This document shows, piece after piece, positions 1-14,917 of a stretch of DNA of 22,295 nt (position 1 is its first letter; the number at the start of each line of letters is the position of its first letter). The stretch lies in contig JBHLLT010000036.1 in NCBI GenBank assembly GCA_048938855.1, forward strand, positions 1 through 22,295, read 5' to 3'. The stretch is from Promethearchaeota archaeon. GTDB lineage: Archaea; Asgardarchaeota; Lokiarchaeia; Sigyniarchaeales; SOKP01. A program made the translations under genes and the position numbers. Under the pieces are notes generated by a model, which was not told the origin of the DNA, did not search any database, and saw nothing but the letters and a program-made list of their open reading frames with translations.

Positions 1-375
1 TACAGATAGGAAATTTTCTGAGTATTTACCACGAGCAGATTTGACCATTTGATTAATAATTTTATTTCTCAAAGTATGATCTTCAACCATTTCTAACTTG
101 CCCTGCATTGAAATAAAATAATAACTACTGAGATCTGCTTCGAATTTTTCTATAGAAACACATACATTGGGATTTTTAGTAAGTATTCTTTTTTTTTTAC
201 CATAATCTGTGAAGTGGAAATATAGATTTCCTTCAAATAACACATATTGAAAAGGGGAGATGTATGGATATTTATCATCCACAAACGCAATTCTACATAG
301 ATCTTGGGAATCGATTGCTTCTTTTATTTCTTTTTCACTCATTTTTGGTAATTTAATTACACTCATATTTTGCAT
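1..375 (-). CDS. Pyridoxamine 5'-phosphate oxidase / NimA-like flavin-binding split-barrel protein (3' end runs off the window)
   Basis: Absent from the ORF track. Manual translation from ATG 375 (alternative ATG 366) is open to base 1: MQNMSVIKLPKMSEKEIKEAIDSQDLCRIAFVDDKYPYISPFQYVLFEGNLYFHFTDYGKKKRILTKNPNVCVSIE. The CRIA..PY..P..Y....LYFH...GKK...NPNVC pattern is typical of PNPOx-like proteins. Confidence 0.8.
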   Translation of the reverse strand, partial: MQNMSVIKLPKMSEKEIKEAIDSQDLCRIAFVDDKYPYISPFQYVLFEGNLYFHFTDYGKKKRILTKNPNVCVSIEKFEADLSSYYFISMQGKLEMVEDHTLRNKIINQMVKSARGKYSENFLSV

Positions 376-2037: not shown

Positions 2038-2829
2038 TTATCTGGTTTCAAAATAGAACTTAGGTCTTCTATCATTCAAAATATCATTAAATTCATTTAA
2101 CCGTTTGTCTCGCGCTCTTTGAATATCAATCTCAATAATATCGATATATGGTTTATCAATAGGAGCAGATGATAATATTTCTCCATTATAAGAAGTTATT
2201 TGACTTTTCCCTGTAAACTTAAAATGATCGGAGCCTCGTTTTTCTTCTCCAATCCTATTCGAGGTTATTATGAACACTCGATTTTCCAAACTTCTTGTCA
2301 CCATAGCATTTTGACAATATGGAAGCACTAAATTTGATGGATGTGCAATTATATCAGCACCTAAAAGTGATAGAGATCTTGCAGTTTCAGGGAAGATCCA
2401 ATCAAAACAAATCATAATACCCACTTTAAATCCATTTAAGTCATATACTTTCAAAGGTTTGTTTCCTGGAGAAAACCATAATTTTTCCTTGTAATACAAA
2501 TGAAGTTTACGATAAGAACCAATTGCACCTTTATTTGAAACTATTAGAGCAGCATTGTATATTTCTTCTCCATCTTTCTCAATAAAGCCCCCAATGACTA
2601 TAGAGTTAGTTAATTGAGCAATGTTGATAAGGAATTGGGCAGTTTCACCCTTAAGATCCTCTGCCATAGACCAAGCTTCCTCCTTATTGATAAATGTATA
2701 ACCTGTAGCAAAAAGTTCTGGTAAAACAATCAAATCTGCTTTCAGATTTTTTATAGCTTTTTCAATTTCTTTAAAATTCCGATTTTTATCTCCAAATTGT
2801 GGAGAAGTTTGTATATATCCAATTTTCAT
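2038..2829 (-). CDS. Nitrilase-superfamily carbon-nitrogen hydrolase (amidase/acyltransferase)
   Basis: Glu-Lys-Cys triad motifs LPELF, YRKLHLY and ICFDWIFPE; RSLENRVF; C-terminal DRRP. ATG 2829 (MKIGYIQ) is preferred over TTG 2838. Confidence 0.92.
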   Translation of the reverse strand: MKIGYIQTSPQFGDKNRNFKEIEKAIKNLKADLIVLPELFATGYTFINKEEAWSMAEDLKGETAQFLINIAQLTNSIVIGGFIEKDGEEIYNAALIVSNKGAIGSYRKLHLYYKEKLWFSPGNKPLKVYDLNGFKVGIMICFDWIFPETARSLSLLGADIIAHPSNLVLPYCQNAMVTRSLENRVFIITSNRIGEEKRGSDHFKFTGKSQITSYNGEILSSAPIDKPYIDIIEIDIQRARDKRLNEFNDILNDRRPKFYFETR

Positions 2830-2876
2830 AATTATCAAACTAAAAAATTTTTATAAAATATTAAAAAAAATGTATA

Positions 2877-3728
2877 TTAACCATTTTTAGATTTCTTATC
2901 CTTTCGCATAGTATAGAAGTCTTCGTAATTTTCCTTTGATTCAATTTCCCCTTTCATTTGTTCCTTTATGATTTTTTCTAAACCATCTTCTTGAAACACA
3001 TTTTTTTTAAATTTTTTCGCAGGAGCCCCTAAATATATGAAATTTTCTTCTAATTCTTGACCAACTTTAGTCATTGAATGTCCTCCTAAAATAGAATTCT
3101 TTCTTATATGTGTACCAGGCATAACAAGACTCTGAGATCCAATTACTACATTATCTTCAATAGTGGTCTTCTTTATAATAAATAAGTTTCCAATTATCAG
3201 AGCAGATTGAATCACAGCGCCCTGTCCTACAACAACATTCTTACCAAACTCAATGAACTCTGTATCAACCCACCCTTCGAATAAAGAATTAGAATATTTA
3301 GTTCTAACTCCAAACATCATAAAACAAATATTATTCATAAATGGAAAAGGAAATTTATGTGATATCCAAATTGGCCACTTTTTTATTGTATTCCTCAGAC
3401 TCCAATATTTATAATCCTTATCTGATCGATCTCTTATGAAAATACCCTCACGAGGTTTATGAATTAGATTAACAATCAAAAGCAAAATCTTAGCGAAAAT
3501 TAGAGAAACGATGATTGATGTGAGGTACATTATAAAAATTCCGATAGGTAAAAAGATGTAAAATTGAGCAAATTTATTATTAAAATATAGTTTCCAAAAT
3601 AGCCAAAATTCAAATTGAATTGAAAAAATGCTGATCCAGATTAAAAAAATATAGTATATGAGATATCTCTTCTTTACTAAAATAAGACTTGTATTTGGTC
3701 CAACTTTTAAACTAGAAGGAACAGACAT
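2877..3728 (-). CDS. Membrane-anchored hexapeptide-repeat (LbH) acyltransferase-like protein, paralog 3
   Basis: Two hydrophobic helices, HKPREGIF..DYKYWSLR linker, hexapeptide repeats (IEFGKNVVVGQGAVI, TIEDNVVIGSQSLVMPGTHIRKNSILG) and terminal YLGAPAKK. Confidence 0.8.
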   Translation of the reverse strand: MSVPSSLKVGPNTSLILVKKRYLIYYIFLIWISIFSIQFEFWLFWKLYFNNKFAQFYIFLPIGIFIMYLTSIIVSLIFAKILLLIVNLIHKPREGIFIRDRSDKDYKYWSLRNTIKKWPIWISHKFPFPFMNNICFMMFGVRTKYSNSLFEGWVDTEFIEFGKNVVVGQGAVIQSALIIGNLFIIKKTTIEDNVVIGSQSLVMPGTHIRKNSILGGHSMTKVGQELEENFIYLGAPAKKFKKNVFQEDGLEKIIKEQMKGEIESKENYEDFYTMRKDKKSKNG

Positions 3729-3731
3729 TAT

Positions 3732-4637
3732 TTACTTTTCCTCCTTATCATTGTCTAAGAGTTCTTTCTTATCTTCATCGATATTAATTTCTTGTTGAAC
3801 CTCATACTTAATTTCATCATCTACATTTACCTTATAGATGACATCTCTTCTTTGTTCTGCATATTTATTTGGTTTAAGTTTTCTAGCAAATTGAGGTCCT
3901 AAATAAATCCATCCGTCTTCTAAATATTGATTTGGAATAGTTGCCGAAAAAGCTCCGAGCACAGATTCTTTACCGAGAATTGACCCTGGAGTAACATGTG
4001 ATAATCCCCCTACAACAGTATGATCACCTAAGACAACTTTTTTTATTATTAAATATTTACCTACAACCATTGAACTCATTACAACAGCGCCTTGACCGAC
4101 AGTTACATTTCTCCCAAACTCAATGAATCCACAATCCGACCATGCATCTTGCATATGACTTGAGAAGTCTACATGAATGTTCATCCATCTAAATCCCCAC
4201 ATTATAATCCAAGGTAAGGGACCATTATTCATAAACCAGAAGACTAATTTTTTTAATTCAACTCGTAATCTCCAAAATTCATAATCTCGATCACCTTCTT
4301 CAGCCTTGAACACTCCTTCTTTAGGTTTATGAATCATATTAATAATTATCAGGAATGCTTTTGTAAACATTGCGATTCCAAATACAAAAATGAAATATAA
4401 TACAAACAACCAGACAGGGATGAGAAACATAGTAATAATCCAGGTTCCCGTTTGTTGAAAAATTAACCAAGAAACATCAAAAAATACAGCAATAGCCATA
4501 TATCCAGAAATCCATAAAATTGGGAGATAAAAACCAAGGAATTTATATCCTATTTTGCTTATCGCACTGGTTGTGACAAAATCTATAGTATAATCAACCT
4601 TTTCAGTACCTCTTTCTTTTTCTCCCTGTTCATTCAT
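3732..4637 (-). CDS. Membrane-anchored hexapeptide-repeat (LbH) acyltransferase-like protein, paralog 2
   Basis: Two TM helices, HKPKEGVF..DYEFWRLR, GPLPW, hexapeptide repeats (IEFGRNVTVGQGAVV, VLGDHTVVGGLSHVTPGSILGKESVLG) and YLGP. ATG 4637 overlaps the upstream stop (TGATG). Confidence 0.8.
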   Translation of the reverse strand: MNEQGEKERGTEKVDYTIDFVTTSAISKIGYKFLGFYLPILWISGYMAIAVFFDVSWLIFQQTGTWIITMFLIPVWLFVLYFIFVFGIAMFTKAFLIIINMIHKPKEGVFKAEEGDRDYEFWRLRVELKKLVFWFMNNGPLPWIIMWGFRWMNIHVDFSSHMQDAWSDCGFIEFGRNVTVGQGAVVMSSMVVGKYLIIKKVVLGDHTVVGGLSHVTPGSILGKESVLGAFSATIPNQYLEDGWIYLGPQFARKLKPNKYAEQRRDVIYKVNVDDEIKYEVQQEINIDEDKKELLDNDKEEK

Positions 4638-5557
4638 CAATTTGGACCTCTTTTTTTTTTTTTACTCTTTCTTTGTCTTTTTAGCTCTTGTTGTTTCTTA
4701 TAGTCTTCTGCTCGTTTCAAATCCTCTTCAGTGATTTGTAGATATTCCAAAACCTTTCTTTTAAAAATCTTTCTCAACGGAGTACCGAAATAGAAATTAT
4801 TACCTTTTACTATGTTGTATTTTGTGGTACCCGTCATAGGGAGCCACCATGAGTTATCTCCAATCTCTACTCCAGGACCGAAAAAATTAAATCCCGCAGC
4901 AGTAACATTATTTTTTATTTTAACTTTAGCAAAAGAAATGTTACCAAAAACACCTTCTACAGCGTGTGAACTGATTCCTGGATTAGTACCAATATAAGTA
5001 TTTTCTCCCACTTCTACAAATCGGTCACCAGCTAGTTGTTCTTCAATTACAGATCCTTTACCAATTTTATTAGTCCCAACAAAATTATACATCCATTTTA
5101 ATAACCAAGGGAATGGACCACGTGAAAACACATTTTTCGGATATTTTATTATGAAACTACGAAAATGATAATAATCCAAAGTTTTACTTGGTATATTTCG
5201 CGGAATGATTCCTGATTTGGATGGAGATTTCTTTTCTGAATATTTCCAGAACCATCGAGTTATGACTGCTACAATAAATGAGTGAAGCAAATAACATAGT
5301 ATTATTACGATAGGTATTGTTAATGAAGCAATAAGTGAAGGTAAATTAGTGAAAAGCGCTATAAAATTCGGGATATCTAAGAAATATATTTTATAAAACA
5401 ACATGATATAAATCATAAAAATGATTCCTGGAAATAAAAAGGAGAAAAAGTAAATCACATAGAACAATGGTAGCCACAACCGTAAATTTAGACTGATTTC
5501 TTCTTTTATAATCCCATTACCAGTATCTATATTATTTTCTGAATTTTTTGATTCCAA
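4637..5557 (-). CDS. Membrane-anchored hexapeptide-repeat (LbH) acyltransferase-like protein, paralog 1 (His-containing)
   Basis: TTG start, two TM helices, PSKSGIIP..DYYHFR, GPFPWLL..GTNKIGKG, VEVGENTYIG, SSHAVEG, GPGVEIGDNS, YFGTP and a basic tail. Confidence 0.8.
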   Translation of the reverse strand: MESKNSENNIDTGNGIIKEEISLNLRLWLPLFYVIYFFSFLFPGIIFMIYIMLFYKIYFLDIPNFIALFTNLPSLIASLTIPIVIILCYLLHSFIVAVITRWFWKYSEKKSPSKSGIIPRNIPSKTLDYYHFRSFIIKYPKNVFSRGPFPWLLKWMYNFVGTNKIGKGSVIEEQLAGDRFVEVGENTYIGTNPGISSHAVEGVFGNISFAKVKIKNNVTAAGFNFFGPGVEIGDNSWWLPMTGTTKYNIVKGNNFYFGTPLRKIFKRKVLEYLQITEEDLKRAEDYKKQQELKRQRKSKKKKRGPN

Positions 5558-5629
5558 TTTTTCTCACAAAGATTCTATTCTTCACTAAAGCTTATGTGTC
5601 GTATATTTCTTGATTATATTATGTTACTA

Positions 5630-5643
5630 TTTATAAATTTTCA
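5630..5643 (-). promoter_or_regulatory. Candidate BRE/TATA promoter of the LbH operon
   Basis: Minus strand reads gaaaaTTTATAAA about 73 nt upstream of the 5557 start. The AT-rich background makes this uncertain. Confidence 0.35.
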
Positions 5644-5771
5644 GATTAAAAATCGTAGGATAAGTGGATAAAAACATACTTTTATTTCCTTTTATTAAAA
5701 ACGCGTAATTAAAAAATTAGTAATCCAAATCTGATTTTTTCTTTAAATTTATTCAAATATTATAAGTTATA

Positions 5772-5790
5772 GATAATGACCGACATTATT
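5772..5790. promoter_or_regulatory. Palindromic operator-like site ATAATG-N5-CATTAT
   Basis: GATAATGACCGACATTATT lies in the middle of the divergent intergenic region between the LbH operon and nrdJ. Confidence 0.3.
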
Positions 5791-6038
5791 CCGACTTAAA
5801 ATTATCAGAAAATTTTAAACTATAACCATTAAAAATAAATTTACAAATTTGTGTATATTCCATAGATTTATCAAACTATAAATAATCAACCGTTAGAGAA
5901 ATCAATCAATAGCTTAATAGAAAGTAAACATTAATTTTAAATTAAAAGAAATCATAAGTTTATAGGACGGTTAAGGCAATAAAAAAAAATTAATAATTAA
6001 TTAAGCCGATAAAATTACAAGAATAATAGTTTACATAA

Positions 6039-8294
6039 GTGTTGATGAAGAAAATGCCTAATAATTCCTTCTCGTTAATAGATTTGTATCCGAAATATGT
6101 TATTAATTCAAAAGGAGAAAAGAAAAAATTTGATGAAAATAGTATAGCAAAGATATTAAACAAAGAAACTGGACTTGATATGAATATTGCGGAAAAAATT
6201 GCTGAAGACACGATTAGAAAAATCATTGGTCTCGGCGTTAAAGAAATTACCACTAATTATATAAGAGAATTAGTGTGTGTTGAATTAACTCAACGGGGTT
6301 TGAATAAGTATAGAAATCTATTTGCTCGAGCGATTAATTTAGAAAATATTTCATTTAAACTTGATGACGATTTCCTTAAAAATTATAAAGGTAAACAACC
6401 AGATTGGGGTCCTCTTGGATATATCACCTATAAGCGGACATATGCAAGAATAATTGAGAAAGAAAATAGAAAGGAAGAATTTTGGGAGACTATTCAAAGA
6501 GTAGTTGAAGGTTGTTATTCTATCCAGAAAGAACACTGTATAAAATTAAGTTTACCTTGGGATGATGAAAAATCTCAAAAATCTGCTCAAATAATGTTTG
6601 AAAAAATCTGGAATTTCAAATTATTGCCCCCTGGACGTGGACTGTGGATGATGGGAACTGAATTTATTGCTCGACATGGATCTATGTCTCTTAATAATTG
6701 TGGTTTTGCTTCTACTGAAGATATTAGCCTCAAGCATTCCAAAGCGTTCGAATTTGTAATGGATGCGCTAATGCTTGGTGTAGGTGTGGGTTTTGATACC
6801 AAAGGGGCAGGCAAGATTACTATACAAAAACCTAGAGAAGGTACCTTCGAATTTGAAATCCCTGATAGCAGAGAGGGTTGGGTAGAAGCGCTTAAGTTAA
6901 TTTTAGAAGCATATTTTTTGGGTAAGCAAGTTCCTACTTTTAATTTCAATTCAATTAGACCTGCTGGTGACCCAATAAGAGGCTTTGGAGGTGTTGCTAG
7001 TGGTCCCGGTCCTTTAAAAGCAATGTTGGAAGATATTCAAAAAATATTAGAATTAAGGATTGGACAAAAGATTACTTCTGTTGATATTGTAGATGTTATG
7101 AACCATATAGGAAAGTGTGTGGTTGCTGGAAATGTCCGTAGAAGTGCTGAAATCGCATTAGGGGATCCTACTGACCTTGATTTTGTAACTTGTAAGCAAG
7201 ATGAAAAAGCATTATACTCTCATAGATGGGCAAGTAATAACTCTGTTTTCGCAGTTAAAGGATTAGATTATTCGTTTATTGCGAATCAAATAGCGGTGAA
7301 TGGCGAACCGGGGGTTTTCTGGCTTGAAAATGCCAGAAATTATGGTAGGATGGGTGATCCGCCTAATTTTAAAGATAGTAAGGCAGCAGGGGTAAATCCA
7401 TGTGGAGAACAAACTTTAGAATCTTTTGAACTATGTTGCCTTGTAGAAACTTTTCCTTCCAGACATGAAAGTTATGAAGAATACCAGGATACATTAAAAT
7501 ATGCATATTTATATTCTAAATCAGTTACCCTTGTCAACACCCATTGGCAAGAAACTAATGCGGTCATGTTAAAAAATCGCCGAATGGGTATATCACAGAC
7601 GGGTATTATTGAAGCATTTGTAAGACATGGGAGAAGGCGAATGTTAGAATGGTGTAGTCGAGCTTATAATTATTTACAAGAATTAGATGAACAATATTCT
7701 GGTTGGCTTTGCATTCCACGTTCAATTAAGATAACTACCGTAAAACCAAGCGGAACTGTTAGTTTACTTCCAGGAGTACCACCAGGAATTCATTATCCAC
7801 ATTCAGAATATTATATAAGAAGAATTCGGCTTTCTAGTAATTCTGATCTCATAAAACATATCAGAGATGCTGGATATAAGATTGAGGATGACCTTTATTC
7901 ACCAAACACAGTGGTAGCGGAATTTCCTATTCATGAACAATATTTTGATCGTTCGAAAAACGAAGTATCCATTTGGGAACAAGCCGAAAATGCCGCGGCA
8001 TACCAAAAATATTGGTCTGACAATCAAGTATCAATTACCATTACATTTAAAGAAGAAGAAGCAGATCAAATTAAACACGTTCTTGAATGCTATGAAGATA
8101 AGTTGAAGAGCGTGAGTTTCTTACCAATAAAAGAACACGGATATAAACAAGCTCCTTATGAAGAAATTACGAAAGAACAATATGAAGAAATGATCTCAAG
8201 ATTAAAACCATTTAATTTAGATGACACAAAAGACAGAGCTATAGGTGAAAAATTTTGCGATTCGGAGTCTTGTGAAGTCAGATTTGACTTGTAA
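6039..8294 (+). CDS. nrdJ: Adenosylcobalamin-dependent (class II) ribonucleotide reductase, monomeric RTPR-like, with N-terminal ATP-cone
   Basis: ATP-cone (KYVINSKGEKKKFD...IRELVCVEL), YKRTYAR, PPGRGLW, LNNC, GNVRRSAEI, thiyl-radical motif NPCGEQ, ELCCLVE, TTVKPSGT and C-terminal redox pair FCDSESC. The true start may be ATG 6045 or 6054. Confidence 0.95.
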   Translation: MLMKKMPNNSFSLIDLYPKYVINSKGEKKKFDENSIAKILNKETGLDMNIAEKIAEDTIRKIIGLGVKEITTNYIRELVCVELTQRGLNKYRNLFARAINLENISFKLDDDFLKNYKGKQPDWGPLGYITYKRTYARIIEKENRKEEFWETIQRVVEGCYSIQKEHCIKLSLPWDDEKSQKSAQIMFEKIWNFKLLPPGRGLWMMGTEFIARHGSMSLNNCGFASTEDISLKHSKAFEFVMDALMLGVGVGFDTKGAGKITIQKPREGTFEFEIPDSREGWVEALKLILEAYFLGKQVPTFNFNSIRPAGDPIRGFGGVASGPGPLKAMLEDIQKILELRIGQKITSVDIVDVMNHIGKCVVAGNVRRSAEIALGDPTDLDFVTCKQDEKALYSHRWASNNSVFAVKGLDYSFIANQIAVNGEPGVFWLENARNYGRMGDPPNFKDSKAAGVNPCGEQTLESFELCCLVETFPSRHESYEEYQDTLKYAYLYSKSVTLVNTHWQETNAVMLKNRRMGISQTGIIEAFVRHGRRRMLEWCSRAYNYLQELDEQYSGWLCIPRSIKITTVKPSGTVSLLPGVPPGIHYPHSEYYIRRIRLSSNSDLIKHIRDAGYKIEDDLYSPNTVVAEFPIHEQYFDRSKNEVSIWEQAENAAAYQKYWSDNQVSITITFKEEEADQIKHVLECYEDKLKSVSFLPIKEHGYKQAPYEEITKEQYEEMISRLKPFNLDDTKDRAIGEKFCDSESCEVRFDL

Positions 8295-8486: not shown

Positions 8487-9449
8487 ATGTCGGAAGAAGA
8501 AGAATTACCACCAGAAGCGATTGAGGAACTTGAAAAGGCTGCTAAAAAAGCGGAAAAAAAACCTCGTAAAACTACAAGAAGTACGCCAACAAAGAAGAAA
8601 GTCAAAAAACCATCGAAGAAAGCTGCTGAGACTCCCGAAGTTGCTCCAAAACCTAGCCGAGCGGTTCATAAAAAGATAAAAGTAAATTTTTGGCGTACAA
8701 GACTACACGATGAGGAATTAGGGGTTCATCAACAACTAAAATACCAAGCGAAAACTCGTTGGTTTAGTAAGAATTTTGATATTGAAGGAGTTGTTGAAGA
8801 AGATGGAGAAAAGAAATATATTATTGGTTTCAGTAAAAACGATTGGGAAGAAAAACCTCTTGAAGAAAAAAGGTTGACGCTCCGAGTATTTACAATTATG
8901 GAAGAAAAAATAACAGATTCTGGTACTGCTAAAGGTGGGAATTTCAAAGGTGGTTTTGAATTAAGTGTATCCCATTCACTCATTCAAAGTTATGAAATTA
9001 AGCATCATGCTCCTGTATTCATAATGCAAGTACCTAGAACAATATATTTATCAAGAGTCGTAAGAGGTTGGAGGTTAGTGGGTACTTATTGGTCATGGCC
9101 ATTGCTTCCAGAGCAAAAGGATGATAAGCTCCAAGTTGTTCGAGCTAAAGGAATTGTAGGCCCTGGAAGGAATTATTGGATTTATATTGGTGATCAAAAA
9201 ATTGCCCGAGTTGACGGCCAAAGAATACAGAAAAATTTTGAAATTCAAATCTTTGATGAGACTTATGCAAAAGATAAAATGTTTATAATGCACATGATCT
9301 TATTTGGTTGTATGTGTAATTTTATGAGAATTGCTGAGAAAATGATTAAACAGCTCTATAAAAAGATGAAGAAAACAGCAACAACAGATTACAAAATTCC
9401 TAGAAATGAATTAACATTATTCCGTAATCCAAGAATGATGAGAAGATAA
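8487..9449 (+). CDS. Hypothetical protein with an acidic then Lys/Pro-rich N-terminus and a possible Tubby-C/LURP-one (scramblase-like) barrel
   Basis: 320-aa ORF with a beta-rich body ending in GRNYWIYIGDQKIARVD..FEIQIFD followed by the hydrophobic helix MFIMHMILFGCMCNF. Confidence 0.6.
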   Translation: MSEEEELPPEAIEELEKAAKKAEKKPRKTTRSTPTKKKVKKPSKKAAETPEVAPKPSRAVHKKIKVNFWRTRLHDEELGVHQQLKYQAKTRWFSKNFDIEGVVEEDGEKKYIIGFSKNDWEEKPLEEKRLTLRVFTIMEEKITDSGTAKGGNFKGGFELSVSHSLIQSYEIKHHAPVFIMQVPRTIYLSRVVRGWRLVGTYWSWPLLPEQKDDKLQVVRAKGIVGPGRNYWIYIGDQKIARVDGQRIQKNFEIQIFDETYAKDKMFIMHMILFGCMCNFMRIAEKMIKQLYKKMKKTATTDYKIPRNELTLFRNPRMMRR

Positions 9450-9471
9450 AACCCTATATGTCAATATATCC

Positions 9472-9492
9472 TTTTTTTACTTTTTTTTTTTT
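9472..9492 (+). terminator. Archaeal U-tract terminator
   Basis: T7-AC-T12 starting 22 nt after the 9449 stop, in a convergent gap. Confidence 0.6.
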
Positions 9493-9529
9493 AAATAATC
9501 AGTTATATCCAGATTTCTCTCAAATCCAT

Positions 9530-9553
9530 AAAAAAAATTTAATAAAAAAAAAA
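9530..9553 (-). terminator. Archaeal U-tract terminator of the 9564-10337 gene
   Basis: A-tracts on the plus strand (U-tracts on minus) starting 10 nt past the stop at 9564. Confidence 0.5.
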
Positions 9554-9563
9554 TTGCATAAAT

Positions 9564-10337
9564 TTAACCAGATAATTCCTTCTTCTTCCACTCAATATAG
9601 CCTCTAGTTTCCTGTCCTCTATGAATTGCTTTTTTACCCGTTTCTTTTTTATAGATTGATTGAAGTGTTCTTTCATCCATTTCTTTCAATGCTTCTTTCT
9701 TAATGCGTTCATCAACTTCAATTTCATCATCGATAGTTTTAACTCGACTAAGAACCCAAAACACGCCTCTATTCCATATTACAAAACCTAGAATAATAAT
9801 AGCTACCACTAAAAAAATCATAACTCCTACCCATAAAATCCATAATCCAACCCCAAAGTTCTCCACCATAACTGTCCATAGTCCCCATAGAGCACTCCAA
9901 AAAGCATAAGGAAGAAATCCTATTAGGAGAGCAAGTAAAGTAATATATAAACTAGCTAAAGCAGTCCCTACAAGTAATCTTAGAGTTGAATAATCTTCCC
10001 ATTTCTTTGCTAATCGACGGTCTTTAAATAAAAGGTTACAAAGCTTTACCATCCCTCCTCTAAATAGAGTGTAAAATAAGACTAGTAAAAACAAATGTCC
10101 AGTAACAATACCAGCTATTATAGCGATTTGAAATCCAAGATGGAGATTTAGAAAAGCTTGCCATGCTGTTCCTGGAATTAGTAGTGTAATAATAACAAAC
10201 CATATGCCAAGTACTACAACAGCGGTACCGACGATAAGCCCATAATAAATAAATTTAGCAATTCTGAGGTCCCAAGTGGAATATAAATCCAATGGATCTG
10301 GTTCTCTATCAGGAGCTTTACGACCTGCGCGCGGCAT
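9564..10337 (-). CDS. Hypothetical 4-TM membrane protein with an internal two-fold repeat
   Basis: Four hydrophobic segments in two hairpins, each preceded by a YST-LR motif, plus a charged C-terminal domain. Confidence 0.75.
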   Translation of the reverse strand: MPRAGRKAPDREPDPLDLYSTWDLRIAKFIYYGLIVGTAVVVLGIWFVIITLLIPGTAWQAFLNLHLGFQIAIIAGIVTGHLFLLVLFYTLFRGGMVKLCNLLFKDRRLAKKWEDYSTLRLLVGTALASLYITLLALLIGFLPYAFWSALWGLWTVMVENFGVGLWILWVGVMIFLVVAIIILGFVIWNRGVFWVLSRVKTIDDEIEVDERIKKEALKEMDERTLQSIYKKETGKKAIHRGQETRGYIEWKKKELSG

Positions 10338-10479
10338 TATTATCTCATTTTATTATGTTTTTTAATTAAATTTTGATTAGGTTTTCAAAATCTATATTTT
10401 AATAATTAGTTTTACTATTATTTATTTTTATTAGTAATTTGATAAGCAAAAGATTATTTTTTAATAGCTTTTTGATAGT

Positions 10480-10938
10480 TCATTTTTTTAAAGGAGATTG
10501 ACAAAAGGGGCAAGTACTATATTTACCATCTAGGTTTTCTCCGCAATAAGGGCATACTGATTTTATATCCTCTTTATCCTTCTCCTTCTTCCTTTTTTTA
10601 GGTTCTTGTTTCTTTGTTGGAACCTCTTCTACCTCAGATTCCTCTTCCATTAAACCTGTTTTATCTAAAATCCTTTCTTTAGGTGTCATATCTTCACGCT
10701 TCTTTTTTGGTTTAATAAAAGGTTTGTCAGAATATTCTAATTTTGTGAAACATATAGGGCAATACACTTTTGGTCTATTTGATAAATAAATTCCATAAAC
10801 AATAGCACCAATTCCTAACGTTCCTATTATGATCATAACCCAAGCTAATTTTTGCATGGTTGTTAAAGGTTTTCTCTTTGAGGTTTCAACTTCTTGTTTA
10901 CACACTTTACAGTATGCAAATTTTATTTTCTTACTCAT
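10480..10938 (-). CDS. LITAF-like zinc knuckle/hydrophobic hairpin protein with a C-terminal zinc ribbon
   Basis: CKVC, about 22 hydrophobic residues, YCPIC, a charged linker and CPYC-x10-CPFC. Start is ATG 10938 or TTG 10947. Confidence 0.7.
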   Translation of the reverse strand: MSKKIKFAYCKVCKQEVETSKRKPLTTMQKLAWVMIIIGTLGIGAIVYGIYLSNRPKVYCPICFTKLEYSDKPFIKPKKKREDMTPKERILDKTGLMEEESEVEEVPTKKQEPKKRKKEKDKEDIKSVCPYCGENLDGKYSTCPFCQSPLKK

Positions 10939-11066
10939 TTTAACCAATTTTCAAATAATTAAGTTGTATATTTTTAATAATAGATTATTTTAATTAAAAA
11001 ACGTTTTTACTACCTAATAATCAAGTTCTTTTTATAAATTGTTATATTCTTTAAAAATGGATAAAC

Positions 11067-12388: not shown

Positions 12389-13471
12389 TTAATTCTCAAC
12401 TTTCTTTAACAGTTCATATTTTCTCCTTGGACTTAAGATTATAGTAACTCCAATTATTATAATGAGAATACTAAAAAAGATAAGTGAATAATTTAAATAA
12501 ATATCCCACCAACTCATAAGCCAAGCTTCCGATATTATAAATGTTATACCAGATATTATATAAAAGTATGGGGGAAAAGGTAAGAACATTACTATGAGAG
12601 AAATTATAATAAATATGGGGGCTATAAATTTTTTACTAAGGTTAAATTTCATTCTTGTTATCTCATTATGCTGTTTTACATACCAGTTTAGTCTAAAATA
12701 ATATTGAATGCCATAAATTAATATAAATACAAAAATAGAAAGAATACCAAGAATAAAACTCATATATTCCCAAGTATATGGGCCAGGAGGGTAAGAACCA
12801 ATAAACCAATTCCAATGGAATGCAAAAATCCAATCTAATGTCCATCCAAATATGAAAATCAGGATAGAACTATATATTATCCCACCACTGGTTAAAATTC
12901 TATTTCCACGGCTTAAAAAACTAGATGTCCTCGAATTATTATCAGAATTGTGACTTTTAATAAATTTTTTGTAAAAATAAAATCCAATGAAAAAAATAAA
13001 TATTCCACATTGAAAGAAGAAAAAACAGATTACTAAAGGAATTAAGAAAAGGCTAGCAATTTCAACTGCAGAAAAATTATAAATATTAAAAAAAATAATG
13101 AAAGAGATAAAGTAACCAAACATATATAATACCAAAAGGGCCCCAAAAAAAGAACCTGATTTCATTAGAATTCTGTATTTTCTTAAATTCCCTCCACGTA
13201 TTTGATCTTTAATTTTCTGAGCTAAATCACGGGAATGATAAAAATGTTTAAAAATTAGACTACCTATTAGGAGGCCTATTCCGATAATTAAAATGTTCAG
13301 AACAATTATATGTAGATTTGGTACCCATGCTAAATACGAGGGAGTACTTGGTAAATTTATTACTAATAATGTTAATATTGCATAAAAAACAGTGGAATAA
13401 ATTGTTATGAATATTGCTATTATAACCATTAAATTTATCAAAATAGATTTATGAGGGATGTTCAGGCTCAT
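12389..13471 (-). CDS. Hypothetical multi-pass membrane protein (about 8 TM), paralog A
   Basis: Very hydrophobic and colinear with 13823-14917 (PS..SYLAWV, LNILIIGIGLLIGS, MFGYF, FIGSYPP, PRRKYE). ATG 13471 was chosen because it aligns with the paralog start. Confidence 0.75.
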   Translation of the reverse strand: MSLNIPHKSILINLMVIIAIFITIYSTVFYAILTLLVINLPSTPSYLAWVPNLHIIVLNILIIGIGLLIGSLIFKHFYHSRDLAQKIKDQIRGGNLRKYRILMKSGSFFGALLVLYMFGYFISFIIFFNIYNFSAVEIASLFLIPLVICFFFFQCGIFIFFIGFYFYKKFIKSHNSDNNSRTSSFLSRGNRILTSGGIIYSSILIFIFGWTLDWIFAFHWNWFIGSYPPGPYTWEYMSFILGILSIFVFILIYGIQYYFRLNWYVKQHNEITRMKFNLSKKFIAPIFIIISLIVMFLPFPPYFYIISGITFIISEAWLMSWWDIYLNYSLIFFSILIIIIGVTIILSPRRKYELLKKVEN

Positions 13472-13529
13472 CTTATATTGCCCTCTAGCATTCAAATAAT
13501 ACTTTTATGTAATTTTATATCAACTAAGT

Positions 13530-13822: not shown

Positions 13823-14917
13823 TTAAAAATTATTTATAACTTCATACTTTCGTCTTGGAATTAAAAAAACAATACAACTTATCAAAATCATTTGGATCAA
13901 AAGCAATGTAATTGTCAAAGATTCAGAATATCCCCATGGGTGATAAAACCATGGATATATAATCAAAGAAACAATATGAAATAAAAAAGCAAGATACCCA
14001 AAATAAAAATATGACTGTAAAACTAGCATGAATGTAATTATTAATATTAATATACTGCCAACTCGAATTATGAAATTAAATTTAAATTGAAAATTCTTTT
14101 TTTTCATGTAACTTAATTTTCTCTCATACTTTATTGCACGAACAAAATAGGTTATAGTCAAGGAGTGGATTAGCAAAAAAACAGATAAAACTGCCAGCAA
14201 AAAACCCATTAATTCATGTTCAAATCGTGTAGGGGGATAAGGGCCTACAAAATAGTAATTGTTAAAGAAAAAAATAGCATATACAGCACTTCCAAAAATA
14301 TATACAATAAATCCACTATAGGCACTTATAATGGTGATTAAAATTTTATATTTTTTTTTTAAGAATCTTGGGATTCCCGTCCTTATTGTAGTTTTTTGAA
14401 GTGTGAGATAATTCTTTATTATATAAAATCCTAAAAAAAAGATAAATAAACCTAACAGGAAAAATAAATACGTTATCATGAATTTCGTTAAGAAAAGCTC
14501 AGCAAACTCAACAGAATTAGTGTAGTACTTAGAAATAAATATTATGAGAGAGAAAAAATAACCAAACATTACTGAAGCTACTAATAAACCTAAAATTGAC
14601 AGTATTCCAAAAAAGATTTTATTCTTTTTAACATCTAATTTTATTGTTCGGATTTTAATTTGTTCTGAAGTTCCTAGGGCTTGACTAAATTTATTATAAA
14701 ATATACTCCCGATTAGGATCCCTAATCCAATAATTAATAAGTTCAAGTAGACTATATACGAAATTGAAACCCATGCCAAATGACTATAAATACTCGGAAT
14801 ATTTGGAGAATGAACTGCTAAGATAATAAAAACAACTCCAGAGTAAACACAAATAAATAATCCCATAAAAGTAATTAATTTAGTCAAAATAGACTTGATG
14901 CTTAAGTTAAAACTCAA
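13823..14917 (-). CDS. Hypothetical multi-pass membrane protein (about 8 TM), paralog B
   Basis: TTG start. PSIYSHLAWV, LNLLIIGLGILIGS, MFGYF, FVGPYPP and PRRKYE are shared with paralog A. Confidence 0.75.
   Translation of the reverse strand: MSFNLSIKSILTKLITFMGLFICVYSGVVFIILAVHSPNIPSIYSHLAWVSISYIVYLNLLIIGLGILIGSIFYNKFSQALGTSEQIKIRTIKLDVKKNKIFFGILSILGLLVASVMFGYFFSLIIFISKYYTNSVEFAELFLTKFMITYLFFLLGLFIFFLGFYIIKNYLTLQKTTIRTGIPRFLKKKYKILITIISAYSGFIVYIFGSAVYAIFFFNNYYFVGPYPPTRFEHELMGFLLAVLSVFLLIHSLTITYFVRAIKYERKLSYMKKKNFQFKFNFIIRVGSILILIITFMLVLQSYFYFGYLAFLFHIVSLIIYPWFYHPWGYSESLTITLLLIQMILISCIVFLIPRRKYEVINNF

Follow-up and report, generated by a model that had tools for sequence, protein, structure and literature searches.

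The stretch of DNA analysed here (22,295 nucleotides in total, hereafter the window) corresponds to positions 1 to 22,295 of contig JBHLLT010000036.1 in assembly GCA_048938855.1 of a Promethearchaeota archaeon, and it carries on its minus strand a cassette of three consecutive genes, designated A, B and C, which encode a putative membrane acyltransferase (Table 1). A first-pass annotation, made from the sequence alone, had described three co-oriented paralogs, each comprising a transmembrane (TM) hairpin and a left-handed beta-helix (LbH), and had likened them to a split form of the end module of Pls and PosA. The first of these statements is borne out by the open reading frames, by hydropathy, and by phmmer and profile comparisons. 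The TGATG overlap between A and B and the 3-nt gap between B and C, also reported at that stage, are both present in the sequence, and a GGAGG is positioned 11 nt ahead of the ATG of gene C. The T8 run behind gene C is a possible archaeal oligo-T terminator closing the three-gene unit, and the AT-rich spacer 5' of gene A is presumably the promoter region.

Table 1. Features of the A-B-C cassette, of its surroundings and of related loci. Positions are those of the window unless a contig is named.
Feature	Position	Strand	Remarks
Gene A	5557..4637	-	306 aa; probable catalytic subunit: TM hairpin, short strand, two helices, LbH
Gene B	4640..3732 (ATG at 4637)	-	302 aa; scaffold-type subunit without histidine, S-S-M at that place
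Gene C	3728..2877	-	283 aa; scaffold-type subunit without histidine, S-A-L at that place
A/B junction TTGATG	4635..4640	-	stop TGA of A (4639-4637) shares its A with ATG of B (4637-4635)
B/C junction	3726..3744	-	GGAGG 3744-3740, stop TAA of B 3734-3732, 3-nt gap, ATG of C 3728-3726
T8 run	2863..2870	-	7 nt past the stop of C; read from the sequence
AT-rich spacer, 481 nt	5558..6038	.	between gene A and divergent class II ribonucleotide reductase gene
TM hairpin of A, residues 27-104	5246..5479	-	hydropathy; two long helices here in homologous fusion model
TM hairpin of B, residues 34-104	4329..4541	-	hydropathy and fusion model
TM hairpin of C, residues 23-92	3453..3662	-	hydropathy and fusion model
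CAC codon, His198 of A, candidate general base	4964..4966	-	aligned with catalytic His of maltose O-acetyltransferase (MAT) and with invariant His of Pls unit 3
Carbon-nitrogen hydrolase (PF00795, 1e-44)	2038-2838	-	starts about 47 nt after C, past the T8 run
AB fusion (588 aa)-C (321 aa)-AB fusion (614 aa) cluster	own-genome contig C10 (L195) 2088-7378		
547-aa protein without Pfam match, conserved	own-genome contig C10 (L195) 9247-10890	+	HSSGTTNSD at residues 92-100
Elements of Asgard units	TM helix end -6; strand 0..3; helix 1 9..28; helix 2 34..43; LbH strands 64, 81, 87, 93		model residues, anchored on post-TM strand
Elements of Pls units	TM helix end -6/-7; strand 0..3; helix 1 7..26; helix 2 30-35..39-43; LbH strands 59-65, 76-82, 82-88, 88-94		model residues, anchored on post-TM strand

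The paralogy of A, B and C is far above chance level. The pairwise E-values are 6e-50 (B-C), 9e-12 (A-C) and 3e-9 (A-B) by phmmer, and 7e-84, 4e-43 and 6e-36, respectively, when profiles are compared with profiles. According to hydropathy, each protein exhibits two hydrophobic helices (residues 27-63 and 65-104 in A, 34-61 and 63-104 in B, 23-45 and 53-92 in C). Hexapeptide repeats (Hexapep, PF00132) are the sole Pfam match in the three proteins, with scores above the 27-bit cut-off for C (35.4 bits) and B (28.2 bits) and below it for A (21.2 bits). In NCBIfam, gene A matches the heptaprenylglyceryl-phosphate O-acetyltransferase family best (E 1.2e-5). A, B and C all carry the motifs P-[FL]-P-[WF] and Y-[LF]-G-x(0-1)-P. 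The two linker motifs of the first-pass annotation, P-x-x-G-[IV] and D-Y followed by an aromatic residue and an arginine, are exact in B and C, whereas A exhibits approximate versions (P-S-K-S-G-I and D-Y-Y-H-F-R).

The lysine-rich tail of gene A contains a run of 13 A (4651-4663), located 12 nt before the A/B junction, and one added A in this run would join A and B in frame. The genome contains 27 runs of at least 13 A or T. Programmed slippage at this position was rejected, as relatives exhibit interrupted A7-A10 runs or none.

Among 319 fetched family proteins, the following architectures were observed: C (189), CA (46), B (41), A (16), AB (13) and CAB (5, of about 800 aa, present in Asgard), with a few very distant proteins that could not be typed. 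No fusion breaking the cyclic order A>B>C was found among the confidently typed proteins. The same order is observed at the level of the genes, both in all seven split cassettes and in five AB...C clusters from four relatives belonging to two genera, in which one to three AB copies are followed by a single C. ATGA-type overlaps recur at the A/B junction of relatives. The identities between orthologs are parallel for the three types (59-82% for A, 65-85% for B and 62-84% for C), so that A, B and C diverge in step, which we counted as support for a complex of the three proteins. The fixed order and the fusions are strong evidence, of the classical fusion-and-neighbourhood kind, that each complex would comprise one A, one B and one C. 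A synteny survey, as suggested by the first-pass annotation, confirmed that the A-B-C order is kept and that the genes are always linked within the order to which the window belongs. Homologs occurring singly, which the annotation had regarded as contrary to a heterotrimer, were found in distant Asgard families only.

Further members of the family are encoded elsewhere in the same genome. Besides the AB-C-AB cluster (Table 1), contig C24 ends in a CA fusion, contig C41 starts with a B unit and contig C70 carries a lone A-type gene. A conserved gene for a 131-aa CxxCxxCC protein (PF03692) lies on the opposite strand within the AB-C-AB cluster (5220-5615 of L195). A two-gene variant of the family is present on contig C74 (L196, 2839-6059), with one protein of 292 aa that has the histidine (FSHLISQD) and one of 245 aa that does not. 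The gene directly behind it encodes a 531-aa protein whose two halves both resemble metallophosphoesterases (GNHD and GHRH motifs). In relatives, up to three AB genes are present for a single C, which suggests that catalytic pairs can be swapped on a shared C subunit.

A structural model of the CAB fusion P0123 (797 aa) was obtained with AlphaFold2 from an alignment of CAB, CA and AB fusions. In this model (mean pLDDT 83.7, pTM 0.84), three equal units form one pseudo-trimer. In each unit, a pair of long helices is followed by a 4-residue strand, two further helices and LbH coils, and a beta-hairpin interrupts these coils. The nearest solved folds of a unit, as identified with Foldseek, are the maltose and galactoside O-acetyltransferases (about 186 columns, target TM-score 0.57-0.63). 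No Pls-like entry was found in the PDB, either by sequence or by fold. With the fixed gene order, the restriction of fusions to AB, CA and CAB, and the confident CAB model, the heterotrimer proposed in the first-pass annotation is upheld, and a membrane-anchored 1:1:1 heterotrimer is the well-supported prediction.

The distribution of the general-base histidine was surveyed in 61 type A, 24 type B and 61 type C units, with a MAT profile built from Streptomycetaceae genomes as a reference. A histidine is present in 50 of the 61 type A units, within the motif [NS]-H-L-W-D. The corresponding place is occupied by S-S-M in B and by S-A-x in C, and thus the histidine is found in type A only. This suggests that the complex has one active site, located at an interface of A, with B and C acting as non-catalytic partners. 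LbH enzymes are normally homotrimers, and it could be argued that A, B and C each form a homotrimeric membrane acyltransferase of their own, that the three enzymes act on different substrates and that they are merely clustered. The stand-alone single-unit homologs of other Asgard families, described below, and the unequal numbers of unit types in the AB-AB-C clusters would fit such an arrangement. Nevertheless, we consider it highly improbable: B and C lack the catalytic histidine, different types are fused in a fixed cyclic order that includes CAB triples, the fusion model packs the three units as one body, and relatives share both the gene order and the overlaps at the junctions.

Strong matches are found only in the Asgard order of the window, and the named proteins are labelled Lokiarchaeota or Promethearchaeota. 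Homologs of gene C with 65-98% identity are present in many Asgard metagenome-assembled genomes labelled Promethearchaeota or Lokiarchaeota. In a survey of 301 sampled genomes of the phylum, strong matches were obtained in all 68 genomes of the window's family, in all seven of a sister family and also in the remaining two families of that class, and only weak matches outside these families. An exhaustive search of B against 1.84 billion representative proteins gave 270 matches. None of the 150 that were listed has the length of a nonribosomal peptide synthetase, and all 10 matches with a source name that were looked up are from Asgard, including the most distant named ones. A word-indexed search with the CAB fusion over proteins of 438-1395 aa gave no match outside Asgard, and tblastn against plasmids retrieved generic LbH tails only.

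Four distant Asgard families (genomes G143, G364, G111 and G344; loci L215-L225) have dispersed single genes encoding proteins of 240-290 aa, which match the family profile across the TM hairpin and the LbH (E 1e-25 to 1e-39). The general-base histidine is kept in all 12 of these homologs that were examined, which indicates that they are probably homotrimers of the ancestral type, with three active sites. The simplest history would be that an active homotrimer triplicated in the ancestor of the window's order, and that two of the copies then lost catalysis. The loss of the histidine in two units out of three could also reflect a membrane complex that is no enzyme and serves as a structural element, as a scaffold or in association with transport, reusing the LbH trimer in the manner of the gamma-carbonic-anhydrase-like subunits of mitochondrial complex I. 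Such chains of complex I are among the weaker PDB sequence matches, 11 of the 61 type A units exhibit a glutamine at the place of the histidine, and there is no pathway context. However, the histidine is present in most type A units and in the 12 single-unit relatives, the best structural matches are active acetyltransferases, and no partner complex is encoded nearby, which makes a non-enzymatic role very unlikely.

Pls and PosA are NRPS-like synthetases of epsilon-poly-L-lysine and delta-poly-L-ornithine, respectively, and TIGR02353 is the NCBIfam model of their C-terminal membrane domain (TM1-6 with C1-C2-C3). The cassette could be viewed as a polymerase of the same kind, which would link activated monomers (amino acids or other acids) at the membrane and yield a polyamide or an ester polymer. 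The activated monomer would come from a separate adenylate-forming enzyme, and no carrier domain would take part. We consider this unlikely, although the architecture of the units is that of the Pls/PosA polymerising domain. An end module from Streptomyces was modelled with AlphaFold2 (pLDDT 79.6, pTM 0.82), and its nearest solved folds belong to the CysE/MAT group, as for the Asgard units. The two models were compared by the positions of their secondary-structure elements, each unit being anchored on the strand that follows the TM helices (Table 1). The order of the elements is common to both, and the spacing differs by at most 5 residues. The layout matches that of the PosA model of Patel and co-workers (PMC10522769), in which the membrane part has six helices and the three beta-helices have five turns each. 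Between these lie a pair of helices and a strand, and this strand pairs with two strands that interrupt the beta-helix. The pattern of histidines is also similar, since Pls likewise has one His-bearing unit out of three. An invariant histidine (Q-T-H-L-F-H-D) occurs at the aligned place of Pls unit 3, even in 26%-identical proteins that consist of a thiolation (T) domain and the end module. It is absent from unit 2, and unit 1 mostly has a tyrosine.

At the sequence level, the relationship to this module is much less clear. Modules of the TIGR02353 family were collected from Streptomyces genomes, which were identified through a 16S signature and searched with the family model, giving 37 modules, of which 15 are below 80% identity. 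The profile comparison with TIGR02353 and Pls that had been suggested in the first-pass annotation gives a similarity of the LbH part only: the TIGR02353 scores are 13.8 (A), 26.6 (B) and 35.7 bits (C), against a curated cut-off of 423.1, and the matches cover about positions 108-215 of the profile, i.e. one LbH. Weak matches to TIGR02353 (E of at most 0.1) were also obtained in 14 of 14 control genomes and are therefore unspecific. With hhalign, Asgard units match Pls units with E-values of 1e-7 to 1e-15 over 102-179 columns and the soluble MAT control with E-values of 1e-8 to 8e-13 over 84-93 columns. These values fail to single out Pls, as the similarity appears about as strong as that to soluble maltose O-acetyltransferases. 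The alignments with Pls units extend 20-90 columns upstream of the LbH, and the arginine, the P-W motif and the histidine are aligned. When the TM and linker part is compared alone, Asgard against Pls gives E-values of 0.05-0.9, which are not significant and leave no useful margin over reversed controls, whereas the values are 1e-8 to 6e-5 among Pls units and 1e-17 to 1e-38 among Asgard units.

A tree of the units, based on the linker and the LbH part, groups Asgard A, B and C in one clade (SH-aLRT 99) and the Pls units in another (89), which again argues against the polymerase. A clade comprising A and Pls unit 3 is rejected (approximately unbiased test, p 0.0014), and the contrast in base composition between AT-rich and GC-rich genomes may inflate this separation. 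An orthology between A/B/C and the C1/C2/C3 domains was likewise rejected: for every Asgard type, the best match is either unit 3 or unit 1 of Pls and the worst is unit 2, and the tree separates the lineages. The separate clades indicate that the two triplications were independent, parallel events and that the cassette is no split descendant of a Pls module. The single-unit ancestors of the two triplications may have had a common membrane-anchored origin or separate ones. The description of the cassette as a split Pls module is thus right for the build, with six TM helices and three LbHs in both models, and wrong for descent and for membership of TIGR02353.

The nature of the donor was considered on the basis of the domains encoded in the genome. 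Neither an AMP-binding nor a PP-binding domain was detected in A, B or C with Pfam, in agreement with the first-pass annotation, which had proposed a search for stand-alone adenylation domains and carriers. At other loci the genome encodes 16 ordinary AMP-binding enzymes. No match to PP-binding (PF00550) was found in this genome, which is 97% complete. Since all the Pls-type modules that were found keep a T domain, including those that have no adenylation (A) domain, a thiotemplate mechanism is unlikely here. This absence also weighs against the polymerase. CoA thioesters are the default donors for the LbH fold and, as no carrier domain was detected in the genome, would be the most likely donor.

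Activation in trans does exist in the Pls family, which is a point in favour of a polymerase. Two TIGR02353 proteins of 964-965 aa, one from Streptomyces venezuelae ATCC 10712 (L138:1462-4353, minus strand) and one from another member of the Streptomycetaceae (L153:856-3750, plus strand), have a PP-binding domain alone before the end module, without an adenylation domain. Shorter Streptomyces open frames with TIGR02353 matches, of 716-1016 aa, were also observed. A further argument is the conserved 547-aa protein of contig C10, with its HSSGTT motif, whose Atlas model resembles clusters of PaaK, CapK and AMP-binding proteins (TM 0.50-0.58 by query and 0.47-0.68 by hit). Synteny places contig C10 next to the window, with this gene a few kb outside window position 1. 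In two genera (g1 and g4), more than 20 genomes have the gene flanked by the ABC cassettes on one side and the AB-AB-C cluster on the other. However, it is unlinked to the cassette in genera g3, g5, g6 and g8, and it is missing in 23 of the 68 genomes of the window's family and in all seven of the sister family, all of which carry the cassette. This adenylate-forming (ANL)-like protein possibly supplies an activated acid to some of the complexes, without being an obligate partner. As no carrier domain was detected and as the adenylate-forming-like gene is near the cassette in two genera and is not universal, polyamide synthesis is unsupported and appears less likely, and a CoA-dependent membrane acyltransferase is the best reading.

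Taken together, A, B and C are probably three subunit types of one membrane-anchored LbH acyltransferase, which would contain one copy of each, an active site in A and CoA as the donor. Each subunit would insert a helical hairpin into the membrane, with both termini inside, and would hold its short strand, its two helices and its CysE/MAT-like LbH in the cytoplasm. The three subunits would be arranged around a pseudo-threefold axis, with six TM helices under an LbH trimer. His198 of A would act as the general base, B and C being non-catalytic, and the acyl group would most likely be taken from a CoA thioester. The acceptor is presumably membrane-proximal, such as a lipid head group, a lipid-linked glycan or an amine.

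Several points weigh against this reading. The single-chain model of the CAB fusion is only a proxy for the A:B:C complex, and the histidine is replaced by a glutamine in the type A units mentioned above. The AB-AB-C clusters hold more AB than C genes, and therefore the stoichiometry or the choice of partners may be more complex. The neighbouring genes name no pathway, and donor and acceptor are both purely inferred. A broader proposal, which we regard as doubtful, is that the ABC complexes are carrier-independent acyl-transfer or polymerising machines of the membrane, which would build or decorate a component of the Loki-type Asgard envelope together with the ANL-like enzyme. This component could be an ester-bearing lipid, an acylated glycan or a polyamide, and the alternative AB fusions would set the specificity.

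The genes found around the cassette encode a ribonucleotide reductase, UvdE, a carbon-nitrogen hydrolase, an alcohol dehydrogenase (ADH), a DUF6512 protein, an aldehyde ferredoxin oxidoreductase (AFOR) and a CxxCxxCC protein. The carbon-nitrogen hydrolase was rejected as a partner: it is found behind C only in the genus of the window, with a 3-nt gap in one case, and it is replaced by UvdE in genus g4. A defence system was rejected as well, with zero PADLOC matches. Among the other genes of the window, 8487-9449 (plus strand) encodes a 320-aa protein with a lysine-rich N-terminus and no Pfam match, whose gene is conserved beside that of ribonucleotide reductase in relatives from this genus (E 1e-163 to 1e-187). 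The 155-aa protein encoded at 10480-10947 (minus strand) exhibits a LITAF-like zinc ribbon (PF10601, E 3.4e-5, 24.4 bits for a cut-off of 23.8), with a further match to a double zinc ribbon. At 12389-13495 and 13823-14917, both on the minus strand, adjacent genes encode paralogs of 368 and 364 aa, which have a mutual E-value of 8e-49 and no Pfam match.

No published description of this system was found in a literature search. To our knowledge, neither a structure nor a mechanism has been established for the polymerising end of Pls/PosA. The cassette offers the same build as separate subunits, one of them apparently catalytic, judging from the sequence, and two of scaffold type, and together with its probably homotrimeric relatives it forms a tractable series for understanding how membrane LbH machines work. 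It would also be a case of parallel evolution, in which a homotrimer became a pseudo-trimer of three types with a single active site independently in two lineages. As a strongly conserved, multi-copy putative membrane enzyme of Asgard, it is of interest for the envelope and lipid chemistry of this lineage, which bears on the origin of eukaryotic membranes. A carrier-independent chemistry of envelope building, if true, would have no described counterpart in archaea.

Compared with known systems, the cassette resembles the Pls/PosA end module in having three units of the same make-up (a TM hairpin followed by a 4-residue strand, a pair of helices and an LbH into which a beta-hairpin is inserted) and in having one His-bearing unit per three (type A here, unit 3 in Pls). 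It differs in being encoded by three or two genes whose proteins have neither A nor T domains, whereas genuine TIGR02353 members carry both or at least a T domain. The family is also archaeal and multi-copy, and was found in all genomes searched from the window's family and the sister family. With the soluble CysE/LacA/MAT group of hexapeptide acyltransferases, which includes maltose and galactoside O-acetyltransferases and serine acetyltransferase, the cassette shares the fold of the unit, the trimeric LbH logic and a general-base histidine that aligns with His198 of A. In contrast to the cassette, these enzymes are soluble homotrimers with three active sites, without a TM hairpin or a post-TM strand, and the sequence alignment with them is confined to the last 84-93 LbH residues. 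The single-gene TM-hairpin LbH proteins of other Asgard families match the same profile and have the same length as the cassette proteins, and they differ in being single and dispersed and in having the histidine in all 12 that were examined.

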